A stretch of 64,000 bases of DNA from an uncultured Pseudomonadota bacterium (GCA_937898635.1 CALEJW010000045.1:890-64889), one strand, 5' to 3'. Shown: positions 3,616 through 11,698, counted from the first letter of the stretch. The notes: a model not told the origin generated them from the sequence alone. Translations and numbers: made by a program.

Positions 3616-4686
3616 TTGTCCCGCCCCCTCCGCGCAGACATCTCGCTCGCCGCGCTCGGCCGCAACTACGAGGCGGCCCGGCGCCAGGCGGGCGCCTCGC
3701 GCGTGCTGGCGGTGGTGAAGGCGAACGGCTACGGGCACGGCCTGGATCGCGTGGCGCGCGCGCTGCCGCGCGCCGACGGGTTCGCCACACTGGAGCTCGA
3801 CGGCGCCGTGCGCCTGCGCGAGTCCGGCTTCGCGGGCGAGATCCTCCTCCTGGAGGGCTTCTTCGACCCGGCGGAGCTCGAGGCGATCTGCGCCTCGCGC
3901 CTGGCGACGGTGGTCCACCACGAGGAGCAGCTGCGCGTGCTGGAGAAGGCGCGCCCGCCGGCGCCCGTCGATGCCTACCTCAAGGTGAACACCGGCATGA
4001 ACCGCCTGGGCTTCGCGCCGGGAGAGGCCCGGCGCGCGCTCGAGCGCCTGCAGGCCACGGGGGCGGCGCGCTCGATCACCCTCATGACGCACTTCGCCAC
4101 CGCCGACGGGCCCGAGGGCGTGCACGAGGCGATGAACCGCTTCGAGCGCGCGACGCGCGGGCTCGGGCTTCCCCGCAGCCTCGCCAACTCCGCGGCGATC
4201 TTCGCCCACCCGCGCTCGCACGCCGACACCGTGCGCGTGGGGATCGCCCTCTACGGCGCCTCGCCCTTCGCGGACCGCGACGCCGCGAGCCTCGGCCTCG
4301 CGCCGGCGATGACGCTGCGCTCGCGGCTGATCGCGGTGCAGGAGATCGGCCCCGGGGAGAGCGTGGGCTACGGCGCCACCTTCCACGCCCCGCGCGCCAT
4401 GCGCATCGGCGTGGTCGCCTGCGGCTACGCCGACGGCTACCCGCGCCACGCGCCCAACGGCACGCCGGTGCTGGTCGAGGGCGTGCGGGTCGCCACGGCC
4501 GGGCGGGTGTCCATGGACATGATCACGGTGGACCTCGCGCCGGTGCCGCAGGCGCGGGTGGGCTCGGAGGTGGTGCTGTGGGGCGAGGGCCTGCCGGTGG
4601 ACGAGGTGGCGCAGGCCGCGGGCACCGTGGGCTACGAGCTCTTGTGCGCGCTCGCCCCGCGCGTCCCGGTGGCGGAGCTCGCCTGA
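3616..4686 (+). CDS. alr: alanine racemase
   Basis: PLP-lysine motif VVKANGYGHG and the C-terminal VGYELLCAL motif. TTG start. 356 aa. Confidence 0.93.
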   Translation: MSRPLRADISLAALGRNYEAARRQAGASRVLAVVKANGYGHGLDRVARALPRADGFATLELDGAVRLRESGFAGEILLLEGFFDPAELEAICASRLATVVHHEEQLRVLEKARPPAPVDAYLKVNTGMNRLGFAPGEARRALERLQATGAARSITLMTHFATADGPEGVHEAMNRFERATRGLGLPRSLANSAAIFAHPRSHADTVRVGIALYGASPFADRDAASLGLAPAMTLRSRLIAVQEIGPGESVGYGATFHAPRAMRIGVVACGYADGYPRHAPNGTPVLVEGVRVATAGRVSMDMITVDLAPVPQARVGSEVVLWGEGLPVDEVAQAAGTVGYELLCALAPRVPVAELA

Positions 4687-6047
4687 TGGCCCGGGCGAAG
4701 AGCGTCTTCTCCTGCACCGAGTGCGGCGGCCAGGCGCCCAAGTGGCAGGGGCAGTGCCCGCACTGCGACGCCTGGAACACCCTGGTGGAGACCGCCGTCG
4801 AGGCGGGCAAGGCGCCGGGCGCCAATCGCTTCGCGAGCTTGGGCGGCACGGGGCAGGCGGTGTCGCTGGGCGAGGTCGAGGCGAAGGATTTCCCGAGGCT
4901 GCCGACGCTCATCGGGGAGTTCGACCGCGTGCTGGGCGGGGGCATCGTCGAGGGCGGCGTGGTCCTCATCGGCGGCGACCCCGGCATCGGCAAGTCGACG
5001 CTCCTGCTGCAGGCCGCGGCGCGGCTCGCGGAGCAGGTGACGGTCCTCTACGTGACCGGCGAGGAGAGCGCGCAGCAGGTGGCGCTGCGCGCGCGCCGCC
5101 TCGAGGTGAACGCGGCCAAGGTCCGGCTGCTGCCGGAGATCGAGCTGGAGAAGATCCAGGCGGCGATCGCCTCGCTCAAGCCGGGCGTCGCGGTGATCGA
5201 CTCCATCCAGACGCTCTATTCCGCGGCGCTCACCTCCGCCCCCGGCTCCGTCGCCCAGGTGCGCGAGTGCGCGGCGCAGTTGACGCGCGTGGCCAAGCAG
5301 TCCGGCACCGCGGTCGTCTTCGTGGGCCACGTCACCAAGGAGGGGGCGCTCGCGGGCCCGCGCGTCCTCGAGCACATGGTGGACACGGTCCTCTACTTCG
5401 AGGGCGACACGCACTCGAGCTTCCGGCTCGTGCGCGCCTTCAAGAACCGCTTCGGCGCGGTGAACGAGATGGGCGTCTTCGCGATGACGGAGAAGGGCCT
5501 TCGCGAGGTGACCAACCCCTCCGCGCTCTTCCTCTCGCGGCACCGCGCGGACGTGGCGGGCTCCTGCGTCATGGTCACGCAGGAGGGCACGCGGCCGCTG
5601 CTCGTGGAGCTGCAGGCGCTCGTGGACGAGGCGCACGGCGCGCAGCCGCGGCGCCTCACCGTGGGGCTGGAGCAGAACCGCCTGGCGATGCTGCTCGCGG
5701 TCCTGCACCGCCACGCCGGCATCGCCCTCTTCGACCAGGACGTCTTCGTGAACGCGGTGGGAGGGGTTCGCATCGCCGAGCCGGGCGCGGACCTCGCCGT
5801 GACGCTCGCGATCGTCTCGAGCCTTCGCAACCGCGCGCTGCCGGCCAAGCACGTGGTCTTCGGCGAGGTGGGGCTCGCCGGCGAGGTGCGCCCGGTGCAG
5901 CGCGGGCAGGAGCGCCTGCGCGAGGCGGCCAAGCTCGGCTTCACGCACGCCATCGTCCCGGCCGCCAACCGGCCGCGGCAGCCGATCGAGGGCCTGGAGG
6001 TGGTGGCCGTCGAGCGCCTCGCGGAGGCGGTGGACTACCGGCCGTAG
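4686..6047 (+). CDS. radA: DNA repair protein RadA/Sms
   Basis: The ATG at 4686 overlaps the alr stop (TGATG). Zinc ribbon CTECGGQAPKWQGQCPHCDAWNT, Walker A GGDPGIGKST, KNRFG motif and a Lon-like C-terminal domain. Confidence 0.95.
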   Translation: MARAKSVFSCTECGGQAPKWQGQCPHCDAWNTLVETAVEAGKAPGANRFASLGGTGQAVSLGEVEAKDFPRLPTLIGEFDRVLGGGIVEGGVVLIGGDPGIGKSTLLLQAAARLAEQVTVLYVTGEESAQQVALRARRLEVNAAKVRLLPEIELEKIQAAIASLKPGVAVIDSIQTLYSAALTSAPGSVAQVRECAAQLTRVAKQSGTAVVFVGHVTKEGALAGPRVLEHMVDTVLYFEGDTHSSFRLVRAFKNRFGAVNEMGVFAMTEKGLREVTNPSALFLSRHRADVAGSCVMVTQEGTRPLLVELQALVDEAHGAQPRRLTVGLEQNRLAMLLAVLHRHAGIALFDQDVFVNAVGGVRIAEPGADLAVTLAIVSSLRNRALPAKHVVFGEVGLAGEVRPVQRGQERLREAAKLGFTHAIVPAANRPRQPIEGLEVVAVERLAEAVDYRP

Positions 6048-6066
6048 GCGCCCGGGCGAGTCCCCG

Positions 6067-7398
6067 TTACTTGACCAGGAGGGCGACGAGCAGGCCGATG
6101 GCGGCGATCGAGAGGACCACGATCGCGACGATCGCGGGCGTGCTGGAGCCGCGGCTCTCGGGGAAGGCGGGCGCGGAATCCGCCGCCTCGGCCGGCGGGC
6201 TCGCGAAGCGCGGGATCGGCCGGAAGCGGGGCGTTTCCTCCTCGGGCTTCTCCGGCGGCGGCACGGCGGGCGCGAGCGGGCTGCCCGGCTCGATGCGCCC
6301 GCGGTAGGCGCGCATCTTCTGCGTGGCGGTGATGTACTCCTCGAACTCGCCGGTCTGGTTCGTCATCGACGCGAGGCGCAGCGTCGCGTCGAAGGAGTCG
6401 AAGGTCTTCGCGATCCCCAGGGGCTTGGTGGACTCGTCCTCGCGCACCGCGCTCCGGTCGAGCTTGCCCTCCGCGGGGAGCGGGATCGTGGTCGATTCCC
6501 CGTAGGGCGCCTCGCCCTGGGGCGGGGGCGGCGGCGGGGCCGAGCGCGCCTTGAGGGCCACGGACGGGCGCGCGGAGTCGATCTGGCGGCGCACCTCGCG
6601 CAGGTCGTCGGCGAACTCCTTCACCGTCTGGTAGCGGTCGTCCACCGCCTTCGCCATCGCCTTGGCGACGATGAGGTCGAGCATCGCGGGCACGTTGCGG
6701 GCGTGCGCCGAGGGCGGCGGCGGCGCGGTGTTCACGGTCGCGTACATGATGGCGTTCACGTTGTCGCCGTCGAAGGGCGCCATCCCGGTGAGGGCCTCGT
6801 AGAGCACGACGCCGAGCGAGAAGATGTCGGTGCGCGTGTCGAGGGACTTGCCGATCACCTGCTCCGGCGACATGTAGCGCGGGGAGCCGAGGATGAGCCC
6901 CGTCATCGTCTTCACCGCGGAGTTGGGCAGGCGCGCGATGCCGAAGTCGGTGATCTTCGCGATCCCGCCGCGCAGCACCATGATGTTCGAGGGCTTCACG
7001 TCGCGGTGCACGATGTCCTGCTGGTGCGCGAACCACAGGCCGTCGGCGACCTGGGCGATGATGTCCACCACCTGCTCCGTGGGCAGGAGCTTGCCCGAGG
7101 CGATGATGTCCTTGAGCTCCTGGCCCTCGAGGAACTCCATCGCCATGTAGGCGACCTGGTCGGTCTTGCCCACGTCGTAGATCGTGACGATGTTCGGGTG
7201 GTTCAGGCGCCCGGCGGCCTTGATCTCCTGCTGGAAGCGCGCCTCGTACTCCTCGAGCTCCTGGCGCGAGAGGTTCAGGTTGATGGTCTTGATGGCGACG
7301 GTGCGGTCGATGATCGGGTCCACGGCCTTGTACACCGTGCCCATCGCGCCCTGCCCGATCTCCGAGACGATCTTGTAGCGGCCCAGGATCGGCGTCAT
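6067..7398 (-). CDS. Hanks-type Ser/Thr protein kinase, C-terminally tail-anchored
   Basis: The ATG at 7398 overlaps the upstream stop (ATGA). GQGAMGTVYKA...VAIK, HRDVKPSNI, DFGIA and SPEQ motifs. A Pro-rich linker follows. The only TM segment (AIVAIVVLSIAAIGLLVALLVK) ends the protein. Confidence 0.9.
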   Translation of the reverse strand: MTPILGRYKIVSEIGQGAMGTVYKAVDPIIDRTVAIKTINLNLSRQELEEYEARFQQEIKAAGRLNHPNIVTIYDVGKTDQVAYMAMEFLEGQELKDIIASGKLLPTEQVVDIIAQVADGLWFAHQQDIVHRDVKPSNIMVLRGGIAKITDFGIARLPNSAVKTMTGLILGSPRYMSPEQVIGKSLDTRTDIFSLGVVLYEALTGMAPFDGDNVNAIMYATVNTAPPPPSAHARNVPAMLDLIVAKAMAKAVDDRYQTVKEFADDLREVRRQIDSARPSVALKARSAPPPPPPQGEAPYGESTTIPLPAEGKLDRSAVREDESTKPLGIAKTFDSFDATLRLASMTNQTGEFEEYITATQKMRAYRGRIEPGSPLAPAVPPPEKPEEETPRFRPIPRFASPPAEAADSAPAFPESRGSSTPAIVAIVVLSIAAIGLLVALLVK

Positions 7399-8204
7399 GG
7401 GGCTTTCTTCCCGGTCTTCTCGGCGAGCGCCTTCTTCGCCTGGGCCTTGGCGCCGGCGAAGGTCTTCGTCCACATCGGGTGGCCGGACTCGGCCGGGGTG
7501 AGGTCGAACGCGGGGTCGATCTCGTAGATCCTCAGGAACTCCGCGCGGCAGGCCGGATAGCGGCCCAGGAGGCACAGGCTGAAGGCGGCGTGCTTGAGCG
7601 CGCGCACCTGGTCCTTCGTCTCCTTCAGGCCCTCGCGGAACGCGGCGTCGAGCAGCGCGAGCGCCTCGTTGAACTCGCCCGCCTCGTACTTCACGAGCCC
7701 GTCGACCAGCATCTGCTCGGCCTTCGCGAGCGTGGCCCGGGGCTTGCCCTGGGCGGCCTCGCGCTCGGCGATGAGCGTCGCGCGGACGGTGCGGTACACG
7801 GGACCCCAGATGGGGTGGCCGTCCTCCGCGATCGAGAGGACGAAGGCCGGGTCGATCTCGAAGGCCCGGCGGAACTCCGCGGCGCAGAGCGTCTCGCGGC
7901 CCGCGAGGCAGTGGATGAAGGCGAGGTGCTTGCGCGCCGTGCCCTGGTCGGCCTTCTCGAGGAGCCCGTGTTCGAGCGAGGCCTGCAGGCTCTTCTGGGC
8001 GCCCTCGTAGTCCCCGGCGTCGTAGGCCTTGAGCCCCGCGAGGAGCTGGGCCCGCGCGCGCGCGCGGAGCGTCTCCTCCGTGATCCGCGTCTCGACGGGC
8101 TTGGGGGCGGGGGCCTCCCGCGGCAGGGGCGCGCAGCCGGCGATCGCGGCGGCGGCAATCGCGAGCGCGCCCGCAAGGCGCAAGGCGGGGGAGGGACGCA
8201 TCAC
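7395..8204 (-). CDS. TPR-like lipoprotein made of two homologous ~85-aa halves
   Basis: Signal peptide plus lipobox (AAIAGC, Cys24). Residues 53-137 and 165-249 align without gaps. The start (GTG 8204 or ATG 8201) overlaps the cyclase stop. Confidence 0.75.
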   Translation of the reverse strand: MMRPSPALRLAGALAIAAAAIAGCAPLPREAPAPKPVETRITEETLRARARAQLLAGLKAYDAGDYEGAQKSLQASLEHGLLEKADQGTARKHLAFIHCLAGRETLCAAEFRRAFEIDPAFVLSIAEDGHPIWGPVYRTVRATLIAEREAAQGKPRATLAKAEQMLVDGLVKYEAGEFNEALALLDAAFREGLKETKDQVRALKHAAFSLCLLGRYPACRAEFLRIYEIDPAFDLTPAESGHPMWTKTFAGAKAQAKKALAEKTGKKAP

Positions 8205-9511
8205 TGGAACCGGTGGCGGATGGTGAGCTCGTCGCGCGACTTGACCTCGATGTTCTCGACGTGCGCCGCGAACGTGGTGTTGCGGATCTCGATCCGGTAC
8301 TTGCCGGGCGCCAGCTTGAGCGACTTCACCGGCGGGCTCACGCCGCCGGGCTTGCCGTTGAGGTACACCTCGCCCCAGGGCTGGATCGCGAAGACCACGG
8401 TGGCGGGCGGCACCGCGGGAGCGGCGGGCGCCGAGGGCTTCGCCGGGTCGATCTTGGGCGGCTCGGCCTTCGCGTGCACCGCGGGCTTCGCGGCGTCGGG
8501 CTTCGCGGCGTCGGGCTTCGCGGGGTCGGCCTTGGCGGCGTCGGGTTTCGCGGCGTCGGGCTTTCCCGGCTCGGCATTCGCGGCATCGCCGGGCGCCCCG
8601 GGCTTGGCGGGCTCGCTAGCCCCCTCGAGGGCCTTCGTGTCGGGCGACTCCGGAGGAGGAGAGAGCTTCGCCGGCGCGCTGGCCGGCGAAATGGTGGGCG
8701 CCGCGGCGAGTTCCGGCACGGTGAGGCCCGGATCGGTCTTCTTCGTGGCGACCATGAAGCCCAGCACCGCGACCACGGCGGCGAGGATGCCGGCGACGAT
8801 CGTGAGCTTGCGCTTGTCCTGCACGAAGGACGGCACCGTGAGCGTGACCGTGGCGGTGCCGTGCGGGGAGGCCGCGGAGAGCGCGCGCTTCACGTTCGTG
8901 GTGGTGGTCGCGGCGCGGTCCTTCATGCTGTCGCGCGCCTTCTTCATCGCGCCCTCGTGGTGGCCGACCACGTAGATCTCGTGCTCGCGGACGTGCTTGT
9001 CGGTGCGCGATCCCTCGTAGGTGAAGAGCTTGGCGTACTCGCTCGCGAGGTTGGACACCACGTCGTAGTAGGAGCGCGAGACCACGATCTGCCCGGGCCG
9101 CGCGAAGCTCATGATCCGCTGCGCGACGTTGATCCCGTCGCCGATGATGTTGGGGTGCCCGTTGATGTCCTTCACCAGCTTCACGGGGCCGAGGTTGATG
9201 CCCATGCGCACCGCGTCCTCGCCGGACTGCTCGACCTGGGTCGCGGTCTGGTTCTCGCGCACCATGTCGTCGCGCAGGGAGAGCGTGGTGAAGAGCGCGT
9301 CCTCGGGGTCTCCGAGGAAGGAGAGCGCCGCGCCGTCGCCCGTGTCGAGGATGATCCGGTCGTTGACCGGGATGTCCTTGATCGCCTCGGAGAGGTTGTT
9401 CGTGAGGCTCGTCTTCAGGCGAATCTGCTCGGCCACCGGCTTCTTGGAATAGCCGACGAGGTCGATGAACACGACACTGCAGATGAATGTGCGGTTGGCC
9501 TGATCGAGCAT
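8201..9511 (-). CDS. membrane protein: N-terminal class III nucleotidyl-cyclase homology domain, one TM, Pro/Ala/Lys-rich linker, C-terminal PEGA-like domain
   Basis: VVFIDLVGYS, TGDGAALSF, RMGINLGPV and GDGINVAQRI are cyclase-domain motifs. TM segment LTIVAGILAAVVAVLGFMVAT. C-terminus PWGEVYLNGKPGG...GKYRIEIRN is PEGA-like. Confidence 0.8.
   Translation of the reverse strand: MLDQANRTFICSVVFIDLVGYSKKPVAEQIRLKTSLTNNLSEAIKDIPVNDRIILDTGDGAALSFLGDPEDALFTTLSLRDDMVRENQTATQVEQSGEDAVRMGINLGPVKLVKDINGHPNIIGDGINVAQRIMSFARPGQIVVSRSYYDVVSNLASEYAKLFTYEGSRTDKHVREHEIYVVGHHEGAMKKARDSMKDRAATTTTNVKRALSAASPHGTATVTLTVPSFVQDKRKLTIVAGILAAVVAVLGFMVATKKTDPGLTVPELAAAPTISPASAPAKLSPPPESPDTKALEGASEPAKPGAPGDAANAEPGKPDAAKPDAAKADPAKPDAAKPDAAKPAVHAKAEPPKIDPAKPSAPAAPAVPPATVVFAIQPWGEVYLNGKPGGVSPPVKSLKLAPGKYRIEIRNTTFAAHVENIEVKSRDELTIRHRFQ
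8483..8572 (-). repeat. six tandem 15-nt repeats encoding (PDAAK)n in the cyclase linker
   Basis: gggcttcgcggcgtc and close variants start at 8483, 8498, 8513, 8528, 8543 and 8558. The protein reads GKPDAAKPDAAKADPAKPDAAKPDAAKPA. Confidence 0.85.
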
Positions 9512-9635
9512 CGTGCGACCCTGAGCGGCGCGCGCCGGACCCCTTTGGGCAGTTATTGCTTTAAAAAAAGAGACTTACCGTGGGAACTTCGGGCAAGTCC
9601 TAGTTTAGCCCATTCCCGCCGGCGAAGTCTGTGGA

Positions 9636-10400
9636 TTACGTCACGATCGAGAGCGGCGCCCCCGGCAGCGCCCGTCCCTCGGGTCCGAGGAGGCGCAAAT
9701 AGGCCTTCGCGACGGCCTCCGGCGGCGCGAGCGCGGCCCGGTCCTCGCCGGGATGGCTCTGCGCGCGCTGGGGCGTGGCCATGGGCCCGGGGACCAGCAC
9801 GTGGAAGCGCGGCCTGCCGGCCTGCTCGCACTCGTCGGACCAGATCGCCGCGAGCGTGCCGAGCCCGGACTTCGACACCGCGAAGGCGCCCCAGTAGGCG
9901 GCGGGACGGAAGGCGTGGGTCTCGGCGGTGAAGGCGACGGCCCCGTCGGGGGCCTCGGCGAGGAGCGGCAGGCAGGCGCGCGTGAGGGCGAAGGGGGCGG
10001 CGAGGTTCACTCTCAGGTGGGCGAGCCAGGTCTCGAGATCCTGGTCGCGCAGGGGGGCGAGCGGCGTGAAGTGCGCGGCGCAGTGCACGAGCGCGTCCAG
10101 GCGCCCGAGGTCCCGGCGCAGCATCCCGGCGAGCGTGTCGAACTCGCGGTCGCCGGCGCTCGCGAGGTCCAGCGGGATGGCCGCCGGCTCGCGACCGCCC
10201 GCCTCGACGATGGCGTCGTAGGTTTCCGTGAGCGGCCCGGGCTTGCGCCCCAGGAGGGCCACGGTGGCGCCGTGGGCGGCGCAGGCGAGCGCCACGGCGC
10301 GCCCGAGGCCGCGGCCCGCCCCGGTGACCAGCACCACGCGGTCCCGGAGCAGGTCGGCGGGCGGCGCCCAGCGGGCGGAAAGGGTTGCGGCGTCGGTCAT
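9636..10400 (-). CDS. short-chain dehydrogenase/reductase (YciK-like)
   Basis: VVLVTGAGRGLGRAVA Rossmann motif and a YxxxK-type site (YWGAFAVSK). The ATG at 10400 overlaps the hpnE stop (ATGA). Confidence 0.8.
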   Translation of the reverse strand: MTDAATLSARWAPPADLLRDRVVLVTGAGRGLGRAVALACAAHGATVALLGRKPGPLTETYDAIVEAGGREPAAIPLDLASAGDREFDTLAGMLRRDLGRLDALVHCAAHFTPLAPLRDQDLETWLAHLRVNLAAPFALTRACLPLLAEAPDGAVAFTAETHAFRPAAYWGAFAVSKSGLGTLAAIWSDECEQAGRPRFHVLVPGPMATPQRAQSHPGEDRAALAPPEAVAKAYLRLLGPEGRALPGAPLSIVT

Positions 10401-11698
10401 GGCGGCGGTTTCCGGTCGAGGATCGTTCGGGCCGCGCGGGCGCCGCTCTGCACGGCGGCCTCCAGCGTGGCGGGGTAGGGGCCCTCCGTGTAGTCGCCGG
10501 CGAGGGCGAGGCCGGGCAGGCCGGTGGCGGCCGGGGGGCGGAAGGTCCCGGGCTCGCAGGCGAAGGTGGCGCGCCGCTCGGTGATGACCTTGGTCCAGCG
10601 CGGCGGCCCCGGAAGGCCCGCGACCCGCTCGACCTCCCGGTGCACCGCGGTCGCGAGCACGTCGTGATCGAGGACGGCCTCGGCCCGCGACGCCGAGATC
10701 ACGGCGGCGACGAGCCCGCGCGCCCCGCCCAGGGCTTCCCGGTCGAAGAGCCACTGGGCGTGGCCGCCGTCGACGCCGGTCATCGGGAAGGGCAGGCGCA
10801 CGCGGCCGTCGTACTGGAGGTAGACGGTGGTGATGGGCTCCTGGCCGATCGCGCCGATCCGCGCCGCGAGCGGGGCGAGCCCGGGCACCTCGGCGAGCAG
10901 CGAGGCGGCCTCGCGGGGCGCGGTGGCGCAGACGACGGCGTCGTAGCGCGCGCTTTCGCCGGCCGTGGAGACGCGCCAGGCCGGTCCCTCGGGCGCGAGC
11001 GCGAGGACCCGCACGCCCAGGACGATGGTCGCGCCGCGCTCCCCGAGCCACGCGATCGCGGGATCGGGGAGCAGGGCCGAGAGGTCGAAGGCCGGCAGCA
11101 GCAGGTCCGAGTCGGCGCGGCGGCGCGCGAGGGCGTCGCGAAGGACGCGGGCGAAGACGCGCGCGTCCGCCCGGGCCGCGGGCGTGTTGAGCGCGGCCAC
11201 GCAGAGCGGCTCCCACAGGAGGCGGCGCACGCGCCCGGGCTGGCCGCGACGCCCGAGGAAGTCCGCCACGGTCTCGCCCGGGAGCGCGGCGGCCTCGGCC
11301 CGGCGGATGGCGAAGGCGAGGCGCAGCGCGGCGAAGCGCTCGCCCGGCGAGAGCCCGCGGGCGAGCGCGAGCGCGGCCGCGAGGTTGAGCGGCGCCGGCA
11401 GGGCGGGCGCGGCGAAGGCGAGGACCCCGGGGTAATGAAGGGCGAGCGCCGTGCGGCGCAGCGCGTTCTGCGCGACGCCCACCTTGCGCATGAGGGCGAG
11501 CGTGTCCCGGTAGGCGCCGAGCAGGACGTGCTGGCCGTTGTCGAGCACGGTGTCGCGGTACTCGACGCGCCGCGCGCGGCCGCCGGGCGTGCGGTTGGCG
11601 TCGTGGAGCGTGACCGCGGCGCCCGCCTCCTGCAGCGCGACGGCCGCCGCGATGCCCGCGTAGCCCGCGCCGACCACCGCCACGCGCCGCGCGCTCAT
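10397..11698 (-). CDS. hpnE: FAD-dependent hydroxysqualene dehydroxylase (HpnE-type amine-oxidase fold)
   Basis: RVAVVGAGYAGIAAAVAL dinucleotide-binding motif. 433 aa. Sits directly after hpnC-hpnD. Its start overlaps the hpnD stop (ATGA). Confidence 0.8.
   Translation of the reverse strand: MSARRVAVVGAGYAGIAAAVALQEAGAAVTLHDANRTPGGRARRVEYRDTVLDNGQHVLLGAYRDTLALMRKVGVAQNALRRTALALHYPGVLAFAAPALPAPLNLAAALALARGLSPGERFAALRLAFAIRRAEAAALPGETVADFLGRRGQPGRVRRLLWEPLCVAALNTPAARADARVFARVLRDALARRRADSDLLLPAFDLSALLPDPAIAWLGERGATIVLGVRVLALAPEGPAWRVSTAGESARYDAVVCATAPREAASLLAEVPGLAPLAARIGAIGQEPITTVYLQYDGRVRLPFPMTGVDGGHAQWLFDREALGGARGLVAAVISASRAEAVLDHDVLATAVHREVERVAGLPGPPRWTKVITERRATFACEPGTFRPPAATGLPGLALAGDYTEGPYPATLEAAVQSGARAARTILDRKPPP

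Follow-up and report, generated by a model that had tools for sequence, protein, structure and literature searches.

We analyzed a window of 64,000 nucleotides from an uncultured Pseudomonadota bacterium (GCA_937898635.1 CALEJW010000045.1:890-64889; host genome of 3.34 Mb, 99.5% complete), in which three adjacent minus-strand genes, here called A, B, and C, occupy positions 6,067 to 9,511. We propose, with moderate confidence, that they form an operon for a trans-envelope signalling complex, a derived, split form of a receptor-kinase/lipoprotein module that has a cousin linked to type VI secretion systems (T6SS), the PpkA-TssW pair. The gene order, domains, conservation, fusions, and phylogeny of the module are established; every physical contact, enzyme activity, and signal in the mechanism given below is one that we infer. 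The trio is a conserved, unstudied unit of Betaproteobacteria, and a rearranged, secretion-independent relative of a T6SS-positioning kinase switch. Its genes and junctions are the following (ORF, open reading frame; AF2, AlphaFold2; nt, nucleotides):

8201..9511, minus strand: gene A, a bitopic membrane protein of 436 residues (ORF; Pfam; AF2)
7395..8201/8204, minus strand: gene B, a lipoprotein of 268 residues from ATG, or 269 residues from a GTG 3 nt upstream (ORF)
6067..7398, minus strand: gene C, a tail-anchored Hanks-type Ser/Thr kinase of 443 residues (ORF; Pfam Pkinase)
8199..8204, minus strand: A/B junction GTGATG, where the TGA of A overlaps the ATG of B by 1 nt, or the GTG of B by 4 nt
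7395..7398, minus strand: B/C junction ATGA, where the TGA of B overlaps the ATG of C
9512..9638, minus strand: intergenic stretch 5' of A, the only non-coding gap in the unit (sequence)

The sequence-only reading from which this work started had joined the three genes by overlapping stop and start codons, and both overlaps were verified (GTGATG at 8204-8199 and ATGA at 7398-7395). For relatives with the same split layout, gaps and kinase tails were taken from 39 loci, and residue counts of A from 43 orthologues. The median gap was -4 nt between A and B and 7.5 nt between B and C; gaps of 30 nt or less were found in 34 of 39 loci for A-B and in 36 of 38 for B-C, and the -4 nt overlap of A and B was kept in 20 of the 39 relatives. 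Since the gaps stay tiny in these loci, the overlap is more than a product of chance. The stretch upstream of A likely holds the promoter region of the operon; a promoter and terminator scan of positions 5800-10000 found no sigma-70 consensus and no terminator. That the three genes constitute one operon is part of the proposal as a whole, and we hold it with the same moderate confidence.

A gene-neighbourhood survey found the trio in synteny in more than 40 species, which belong to several families. Its conservation extends through the genus and to further families of the order, so the objection that the genes might not be syntenic in related genomes fails. Chance adjacency was also considered, and it was ruled out by this synteny together with the gene fusions described below. 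In the window, the trio is flanked by radA and SDR/hpn genes. A functional tie to the neighbouring hopanoid genes was rejected, as many loci of the split type have another genomic location. Two ORF clusters (X879 and X729) were discarded as antisense shadow ORFs of the radA and squalene-synthase genes.

The domains of the three proteins were placed as follows (CHD, cyclase-homology domain; pLDDT, predicted local distance difference test):

8957..9511, minus strand: cytoplasmic class III CHD of A, residues 1-185 (phmmer, Foldseek)
8741..8806, minus strand: single transmembrane helix of A, about residues 236-257 (hydropathy maximum 2.73; AF2 helix 233-255)
8417..8740, minus strand: Pro-, Ala-, and Lys-rich periplasmic spacer of A, predicted as disordered, residues 258-365 (256-365 in AF2; pLDDT ~45-55; varies in orthologues)
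8482..8588, minus strand: 15-nt tandem repeat, ~7 copies, encoding (KPDAA)n in the spacer of A (Tandem Repeats Finder)
8204..8416, minus strand: periplasmic PEGA domain of A, residues 366-436 (Pfam; AF2)
7779..8063, minus strand: TssQ domain 1 of B, residues 47-141, with two invariant Cys and GHPIWGPVY (95.6 bits)
7440..7727, minus strand: TssQ domain 2 of B, residues 159-254, with the diverged GHPMWTKTF (89.1 bits)
6589..7377, minus strand: kinase catalytic domain of C, residues 8-270, with a TxT activation loop (Pfam; motifs)
6370..6402, minus strand: FDSFDATLRLA, residues 333-343, in the cytoplasmic tail of C (orthologue comparison)
6073..6138, minus strand: C-terminal membrane anchor of C, about residues 421-442 (hydropathy 3.15)

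Pfam and the AF2 model of A, computed on 34 orthologues, agree on the architecture first described for this gene, with a CHD inside, a PEGA domain outside, and one transmembrane helix. Guanylate_cyc, PEGA, and Pkinase all exceeded their Pfam gathering thresholds in the trio, and the TPR matches of B were sub-threshold only. Both calls on A are barely above the threshold: Guanylate_cyc (PF00211) scored 22.6 bits for a threshold of 21.9 bits, and PEGA (PF08308) 21.7 bits for a threshold of 20.8 bits. These weak calls are backed by the structure model and by fold superposition. The CHD was modelled with a pLDDT of ~90, and Foldseek gave TM-scores of 0.74-0.84 to CyaB, Rv1900c, and Ma1120 (E 2e-10); a phmmer search against the PDB returned 3mr7 at 5e-7. 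The PEGA domain was modelled as a seven-strand beta-sandwich with a pLDDT above 90, and its motif PWGE...GVSPP...PGK..IE.RN is kept in the orthologues.

Orthologues of A are 68-87% identical across the genus. The CHD is the best-conserved part of the protein among the 43 orthologues; the spacer is free to differ in length and sequence. The metal-binding residues Asp17 and Asp59 are present in 41/43 and 42/43 orthologues, and the transition-state residues Asn128 and Arg132 in 42/43 and 43/43. At the base-recognition positions, the canonical Lys is replaced by Leu55 in 43/43 and the canonical Asp by Asn121 in 42/43, so that A fits neither the Lys/Asp pair of adenylyl cyclases nor the Glu/Cys pair of guanylyl cyclases. 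A Thr-rich juxtamembrane stretch of A, AATTTTN, was rejected as a phospho-acceptor site, since the orthologues do not conserve it. Relatives of A are named "adenylate/guanylate cyclase domain-containing protein" or "hypothetical" in public databases, and in metagenomes they form at least 7,674 clusters at 90% identity.

The middle gene had been described as a duplicated periplasmic lipoprotein, and the lipobox, the two homologous halves, and the TPR-like AF2 model bear this out. Over its whole length, B scored 180.4 bits on NF038027, the "TssQ family T6SS-associated lipoprotein" model, which has an NCBIfam curated cut-off of 65 bits. In the alignment, the TssQ domain is marked by a pair of cysteines that do not vary and, near its C-terminus, by the motif GHPxWGPV[FY]. 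The tandem duplication of this domain is limited to one sub-clade of the split loci, which includes the window; two complete genomes of the family, each a single contig, also have the duplicated lipoprotein. The lipobox of B is IAGC (Cys23, with Ala at +2), and a lipobox is present in 65 homologues. The AF2 model (pLDDT 89) is all-helical, with two four-helix bundles and capping helices, and its best Foldseek matches are TPR proteins (E ~2e-4). B is probably located in the outer membrane, because there is no Asp at +2 and because TssW behaves in this way. Public names for B are "TssQ family..." or "PilF". The published proteins called "TssQ" (a Bacteroidota transmembrane protein and Proteus gene names) are unrelated and do not explain NF038027.

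For C, the complete Hanks domain and the single C-terminal transmembrane helix of the sequence-only reading were both recovered. Pkinase (PF00069) scored 187.5 bits, and all the Hanks motifs (GxGxxG, VAIK, alphaC Glu, HRD, DFG, and SPE) are present and conserved in the 39 orthologues. The hydrophobic helix comprises the last ~22 residues, with one or two residues beyond it; in all 39 full-length split kinases, the protein ends 0-6 residues past the helix. The motif FDSxxATxRLA was found in 37 of the 39 split kinases and in none of 22 true fused kinases, and we propose it as a docking or regulatory site.

The relationship of the trio to other modules was studied in the best 80 of at least 594 lipoprotein relatives recovered by a motif scan of species genomes. 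These 80 loci are the closest to the lipoprotein B of the window, and the proportions of layouts among them are not population estimates. A PEGA gene directly precedes the TssQ gene in nearly all of them, the exceptions being L104, L112, and truncations at contig edges. Two layouts occur. The split layout (CHD-transmembrane-PEGA, TssQ, tail-anchored kinase) is found in ~45 loci, and none of these has an FHA or PP2C gene beside the module. The fused layout (kinase-transmembrane-PEGA, TssQ) is found in ~22 complete cases; nearly all have divergent PP2C and FHA genes upstream, as judged by Pfam on representatives, and many have a second FHA gene, with or without PP2C, downstream. Rosetta-stone fusions link the parts of the module in three ways: kinase-transmembrane-PEGA in ~22 loci, a TssQ-like-PEGA protein in Delftia, and a kinase-cyclase protein on contig C183 of the window's genome. 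As judged from gene order, the predicted periplasmic pair PEGA/TssQ is the constant core of the module.

Two further observations were made on these loci. Four fused loci (L087, L107, L118, and L124) carry minus-strand FHA and PP2C genes on both flanks, a mirror duplication of reader and eraser genes. Three typical betaproteobacterial split modules (L077, L102, and L121) come from metagenome-assembled genomes labelled Enterobacteriaceae, Streptomycetaceae, and Clostridia, and these contigs are probably mis-binned or mislabelled.

A kinase-domain tree (maximum likelihood, quick search, rooted at the midpoint or with a distant outgroup) placed all 30 split kinases in one clade (SH-aLRT support 100), nested within a grade of fused kinases; the T6SS-linked kinases formed the distant outgroup. 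In Sulfuricellaceae-type genomes, the fused form lies between SDR/hpn and radA/alr, which is the site of the split trio in Usitatibacteraceae. The trio had been taken for an insert between the radA block and the hpn operon. Its position was right, but it is an old resident of the site, where the fused form with FHA and PP2C stands in other families. The simplest history suggested by these data is a single rearrangement of the fused FHA/PP2C module. The kinase domain would have split off into a downstream gene with a membrane anchor of its own, the CHD would have taken its place on the transmembrane-PEGA protein, and the FHA and PP2C genes would have departed from the locus. Many split loci are found at other places in the genome, so the trio would later have moved as one unit. 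In one congener (G019, 98% complete), the site is empty (L152, G019:C83 5808-7865): the trio is missing, only ~40 nt separate the ends of the convergent SDR and radA genes, and no A homologue occurs anywhere in the genome. This is most likely a loss, because outgroups hold the fused module at the hpn/SDR-radA site.

The link of the module to type VI secretion comes from TssW. In Acidovorax (Paracidovorax) citrulli, the tssW gene lies between ppkA and fha and is flanked by hcp and tssJ; the protein is located in the outer membrane, binds PpkA's periplasmic domain, and gives the T6SS its position, and Delftia acidovorans is listed as a carrier of tssW (Pei et al., mBio 2025, PMC12607579). In a sample of 401 genomes from the order, an NF038027 match accompanied by PEGA kinases, Fha, and PP2C lay within 20 kb of tssC in at least seven. 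The T6SS-linked lipoproteins have no conserved stretch for an alignment-based locus search, and a single-protein search was used. In Delftia tsuruhatensis NBRC 16741 (L139), the order is hcp, a kinase-transmembrane-PEGA gene, a 262-residue exported protein, an NF038027 lipoprotein (118.7 bits), Fha (FHA plus T6SS_FHA_C), and PP2C. Beyond PP2C come likely tssJ, tssK, tssM, and tssB genes before tssC; tssJ to tssB were assigned from ORF sizes and N-termini, and TssC by search. The 262-residue protein (3779-4564) fuses a PEGA domain (35.6 bits) with a TssQ-like one, which at 52.7 bits stays below the cut-off. Because the Delftia member sits between ppkA and fha, with hcp and a likely tssJ flanking, TssW is almost certainly a member of NF038027. 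The earlier statement that the trio matches no named system must consequently be given up: B belongs to the TssQ/TssW family, and the module is a relative of the PpkA-TssW pair (PMC12607579). Another T6SS-linked locus (L135, G468:C1 11531-14837) has two tandem kinase-transmembrane-PEGA genes upstream of one TssQ lipoprotein.

The window's genome contains other genes related to the module. On contig C167 (~9019-11081, minus strand), the gene of a 294-residue degenerate CHD-transmembrane-PEGA protein lies directly upstream of that of a Hanks kinase with a tail anchor and the motif variant FDCxxGLxRLA; there is no TssQ lipoprotein at this locus. The metal and transition-state residues of this CHD paralogue have been lost. 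The pair holds the only other PEGA-domain proteins in the genome besides A, and a 144-residue ORF with a domain that binds cyclic nucleoside monophosphates (cNMP) lies ~1 kb away (C167:7766-8014). On contig C183 (11236-13224, plus strand), a 662-residue ORF combines a Hanks kinase, a class III cyclase with canonical motifs (FTDLKGST, KTIGDG, and VNTASR), and a C-terminal transmembrane helix. Kinase ORFs with cNMP-binding domains occur on C138 (21796-22956), C69 (64191-65354), and C44 (37478-38617). In total, matches in the genome number 11 for kinases, 9 for cyclase domains, and 20 for cNMP-binding domains; this kinase/cNMP network is unusually dense.

In the mechanism that we propose, B, with its TPR-like fold, would sit in the outer membrane and A would span the inner membrane, its PEGA domain reaching and binding B on the ~110-residue Pro/Ala/Lys-rich spacer. 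This contact is supported by the constant adjacency of PEGA and TssQ genes, by the Delftia TssQ-PEGA fusion, and by the published binding of TssW to the PpkA ectodomain. The CHD of A would stand in for the kinase domain of the fused ancestor, and C would be the kinase after its separation, anchored in the inner membrane and recruited to A through its FDSxxATxRLA tail. Three points speak for cooperation between CHD and kinase: the fused ancestor, the protein on C183 that joins a kinase to a CHD, and the occurrence of the motif only with a CHD partner. A change in the contact between B and PEGA, reflecting the state of the envelope, would alter the CHD dimer, and this dimer would gate the kinase and most likely make a cyclic nucleotide from its Leu/Asn base pocket. 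The outputs, likely phosphorylation and/or a cyclic nucleotide, would be read in trans. The FHA, PP2C, cNMP-binding, and Hcp genes of the genome all sit on other contigs, and the cNMP-binding proteins (20 matches), FHA, and PP2C among them are possible readers. By analogy, the signal may be the state of the outer membrane or of the periplasm.

The same complex could also be built around a CHD that is a pseudo-enzyme, acting as a dimerizing or docking scaffold or as a substrate, with Ser/Thr phosphorylation as the sole output. The change of the substrate residues Lys/Asp to Leu/Asn in all or nearly all of the 43 orthologues agrees with this, as does the marginal Guanylate_cyc score. The pair on C167 apparently works with a clearly degenerate CHD, and in A the CHD replaced a kinase domain, itself a dimerizing module. 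However, a scaffold need not keep catalytic residues, and the C167 paralogue did not; in A, across families, 41-43 of the 43 orthologues retain the metal Asp pair, the Asn, the Arg, and the glycine-rich loops. The structural neighbour Rv1900c is active with a non-canonical residue pair. We consider a pseudo-enzyme possible but rather unlikely. Because strong purifying selection acts on the catalytic residues, in contrast to the decay seen in the C167 paralogue, we lean slightly, within the proposed model, toward a CHD that is catalytically competent with an atypical base pocket. A more specific version, in which the CHD has a non-canonical cyclic nucleotide as its product or a non-purine nucleoside triphosphate as its substrate, under a TssQ-PEGA tether and with a docked tail-anchored kinase, seems doubtful; if true, the envelope would be linked to a second messenger by a pathway not described before, one that replaced the FHA/PP2C phospho-relay of the ancestor.

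The T6SS-associated name of the model on which B scores 180 bits, the genomes of the order with a family member within 20 kb of tssC, and an orphan Hcp-family gene of the window's genome (116 bits; contig C224 19919-20290, minus strand) raise the question of whether the trio serves a T6SS as an accessory regulator or is what remains of one. We find this very improbable, because TssC/VipB is absent from the genome, from 24 genomes of the family, and from five other module-bearing genomes of the order. Among the 401 genomes, compared by NF038027 and TssC profile matches, 146 had the TssQ family, 86 had TssC, and 24 had both; TssC thus occurred in 16% (24/146) of the TssQ-positive and in 24% (62/255) of the TssQ-negative genomes. 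This census shows that the "T6SS-associated" label fits only a minority of the TssQ family. An even sample of the whole class gave only 2 of 400 genomes above the cut-off, because the family is concentrated in one order. The T6SS-linked kinases are also distant in the tree, and Fha and PppA are missing from the locus. The sequence-only reading had noted no FHA, PP2C, cNMP-binding, or T6SS genes in the window, which stands insofar as the matches are on other contigs, but B itself belongs to a family with a T6SS-associated name. It is likewise scarcely credible that C is an anti-phage kinase of the PD-T4-6 type with A and B as its sensors. PADLOC models of PD-T4-6 do match C, with up to 344 bits, yet these matches cover the generic Hanks domain, dozens of PD-T4-6 models score equally, and the NCBIfam defence-kinase models fall far under their cut-offs. 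The only PD-T4-6 match of A is weak (21.1 bits) and lies on the low-complexity spacer, and B has none. Moreover, the trio occupies a stable site between housekeeping genes across families, not a variable island.

Several points weigh against the signalling complex as we propose it. The kinase tree has only a midpoint or distant-outgroup root and was obtained by a quick method. The membership of TssW in NF038027 is drawn from Delftia synteny, not from the A. citrulli sequence, and the outer-membrane placement of B leans on the +2 rule of E. coli and on TssW. The canonical base-recognition residues of the CHD are replaced by Leu and Asn, and the domain may be unable to cyclize either ATP or GTP, or its role may be that of a scaffold alone. 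In addition, the congener that lacks the trio indicates that it is dispensable.

To our knowledge, Hanks kinases are abundant in environmental Proteobacteria and their inputs are almost unknown. Full-text searches of the literature for PEGA and kinase, with or without cyclase, gave no account of this module, which provides a defined and widespread input device made of a PEGA ectodomain and a TssQ/TssW lipoprotein. The recently described T6SS positioning device TssW-PpkA would belong to a far larger family that is mostly T6SS-independent. The split form can be seen as a natural experiment, in which a cyclase-like domain apparently took the place of the kinase domain and the kinase was joined on again as a subunit with a tail anchor; it opens a direct route to the coupling of Ser/Thr phosphorylation and cyclic nucleotides across the envelope.

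Class III cyclases with a non-canonical pocket, such as Rv1900c (PDB 1ybt), have their fold in common with A (TM-score 0.84), and the metal Asp pair and the transition-state Asn/Arg are common to both. Unlike Rv1900c-type cyclases, A has Leu/Asn at the base positions and its own conserved C-terminal segment, GSRTDKHVREHEIY; it is tethered to the membrane with a PEGA ectodomain, and it is a predicted cyclase only.

The ectodomain of P. aeruginosa PpkA is of the von Willebrand A type, not PEGA. The H1-T6SS pathway of that species, TagQRST-PpkA-PppA-Fha1, follows a logic in common with the trio, leading from an outer-membrane lipoprotein to an inner-membrane Hanks kinase, and the PpkA proteins of A. 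citrulli and P. aeruginosa are distant homologues, 26% identical (PMC12607579). No counterparts of TagR or TagS/T were seen among the immediate neighbours of the trio, for which no dedicated search was made. PpkA-TssW-Fha of A. citrulli resembles the trio in that the gene of a membrane Hanks kinase has beside it one for an outer-membrane partner from the TssQ/TssW family. This partner binds the kinase's periplasmic domain, which in the Delftia counterpart is PEGA. In the window, by contrast, PEGA is on a separate protein with a CHD inside, kinase C has no ectodomain, and the lipoprotein is duplicated; the locus lacks Fha, PppA, and T6SS genes, and the genome lacks the sheath gene.

The fused module found, for example, in Sulfuricella, Thiobacillus, and Derxia gummosa DSM 723 has the same PEGA/TssQ pair as the trio and, in several families, the same SDR/hpn-radA site, and its kinases are the nearest kin of the split-type kinases. 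It differs in that kinase and PEGA are one polypeptide, flanked by FHA and PP2C, and in having neither the CHD nor FDSxxATxRLA, whereas the trio of the window has both.

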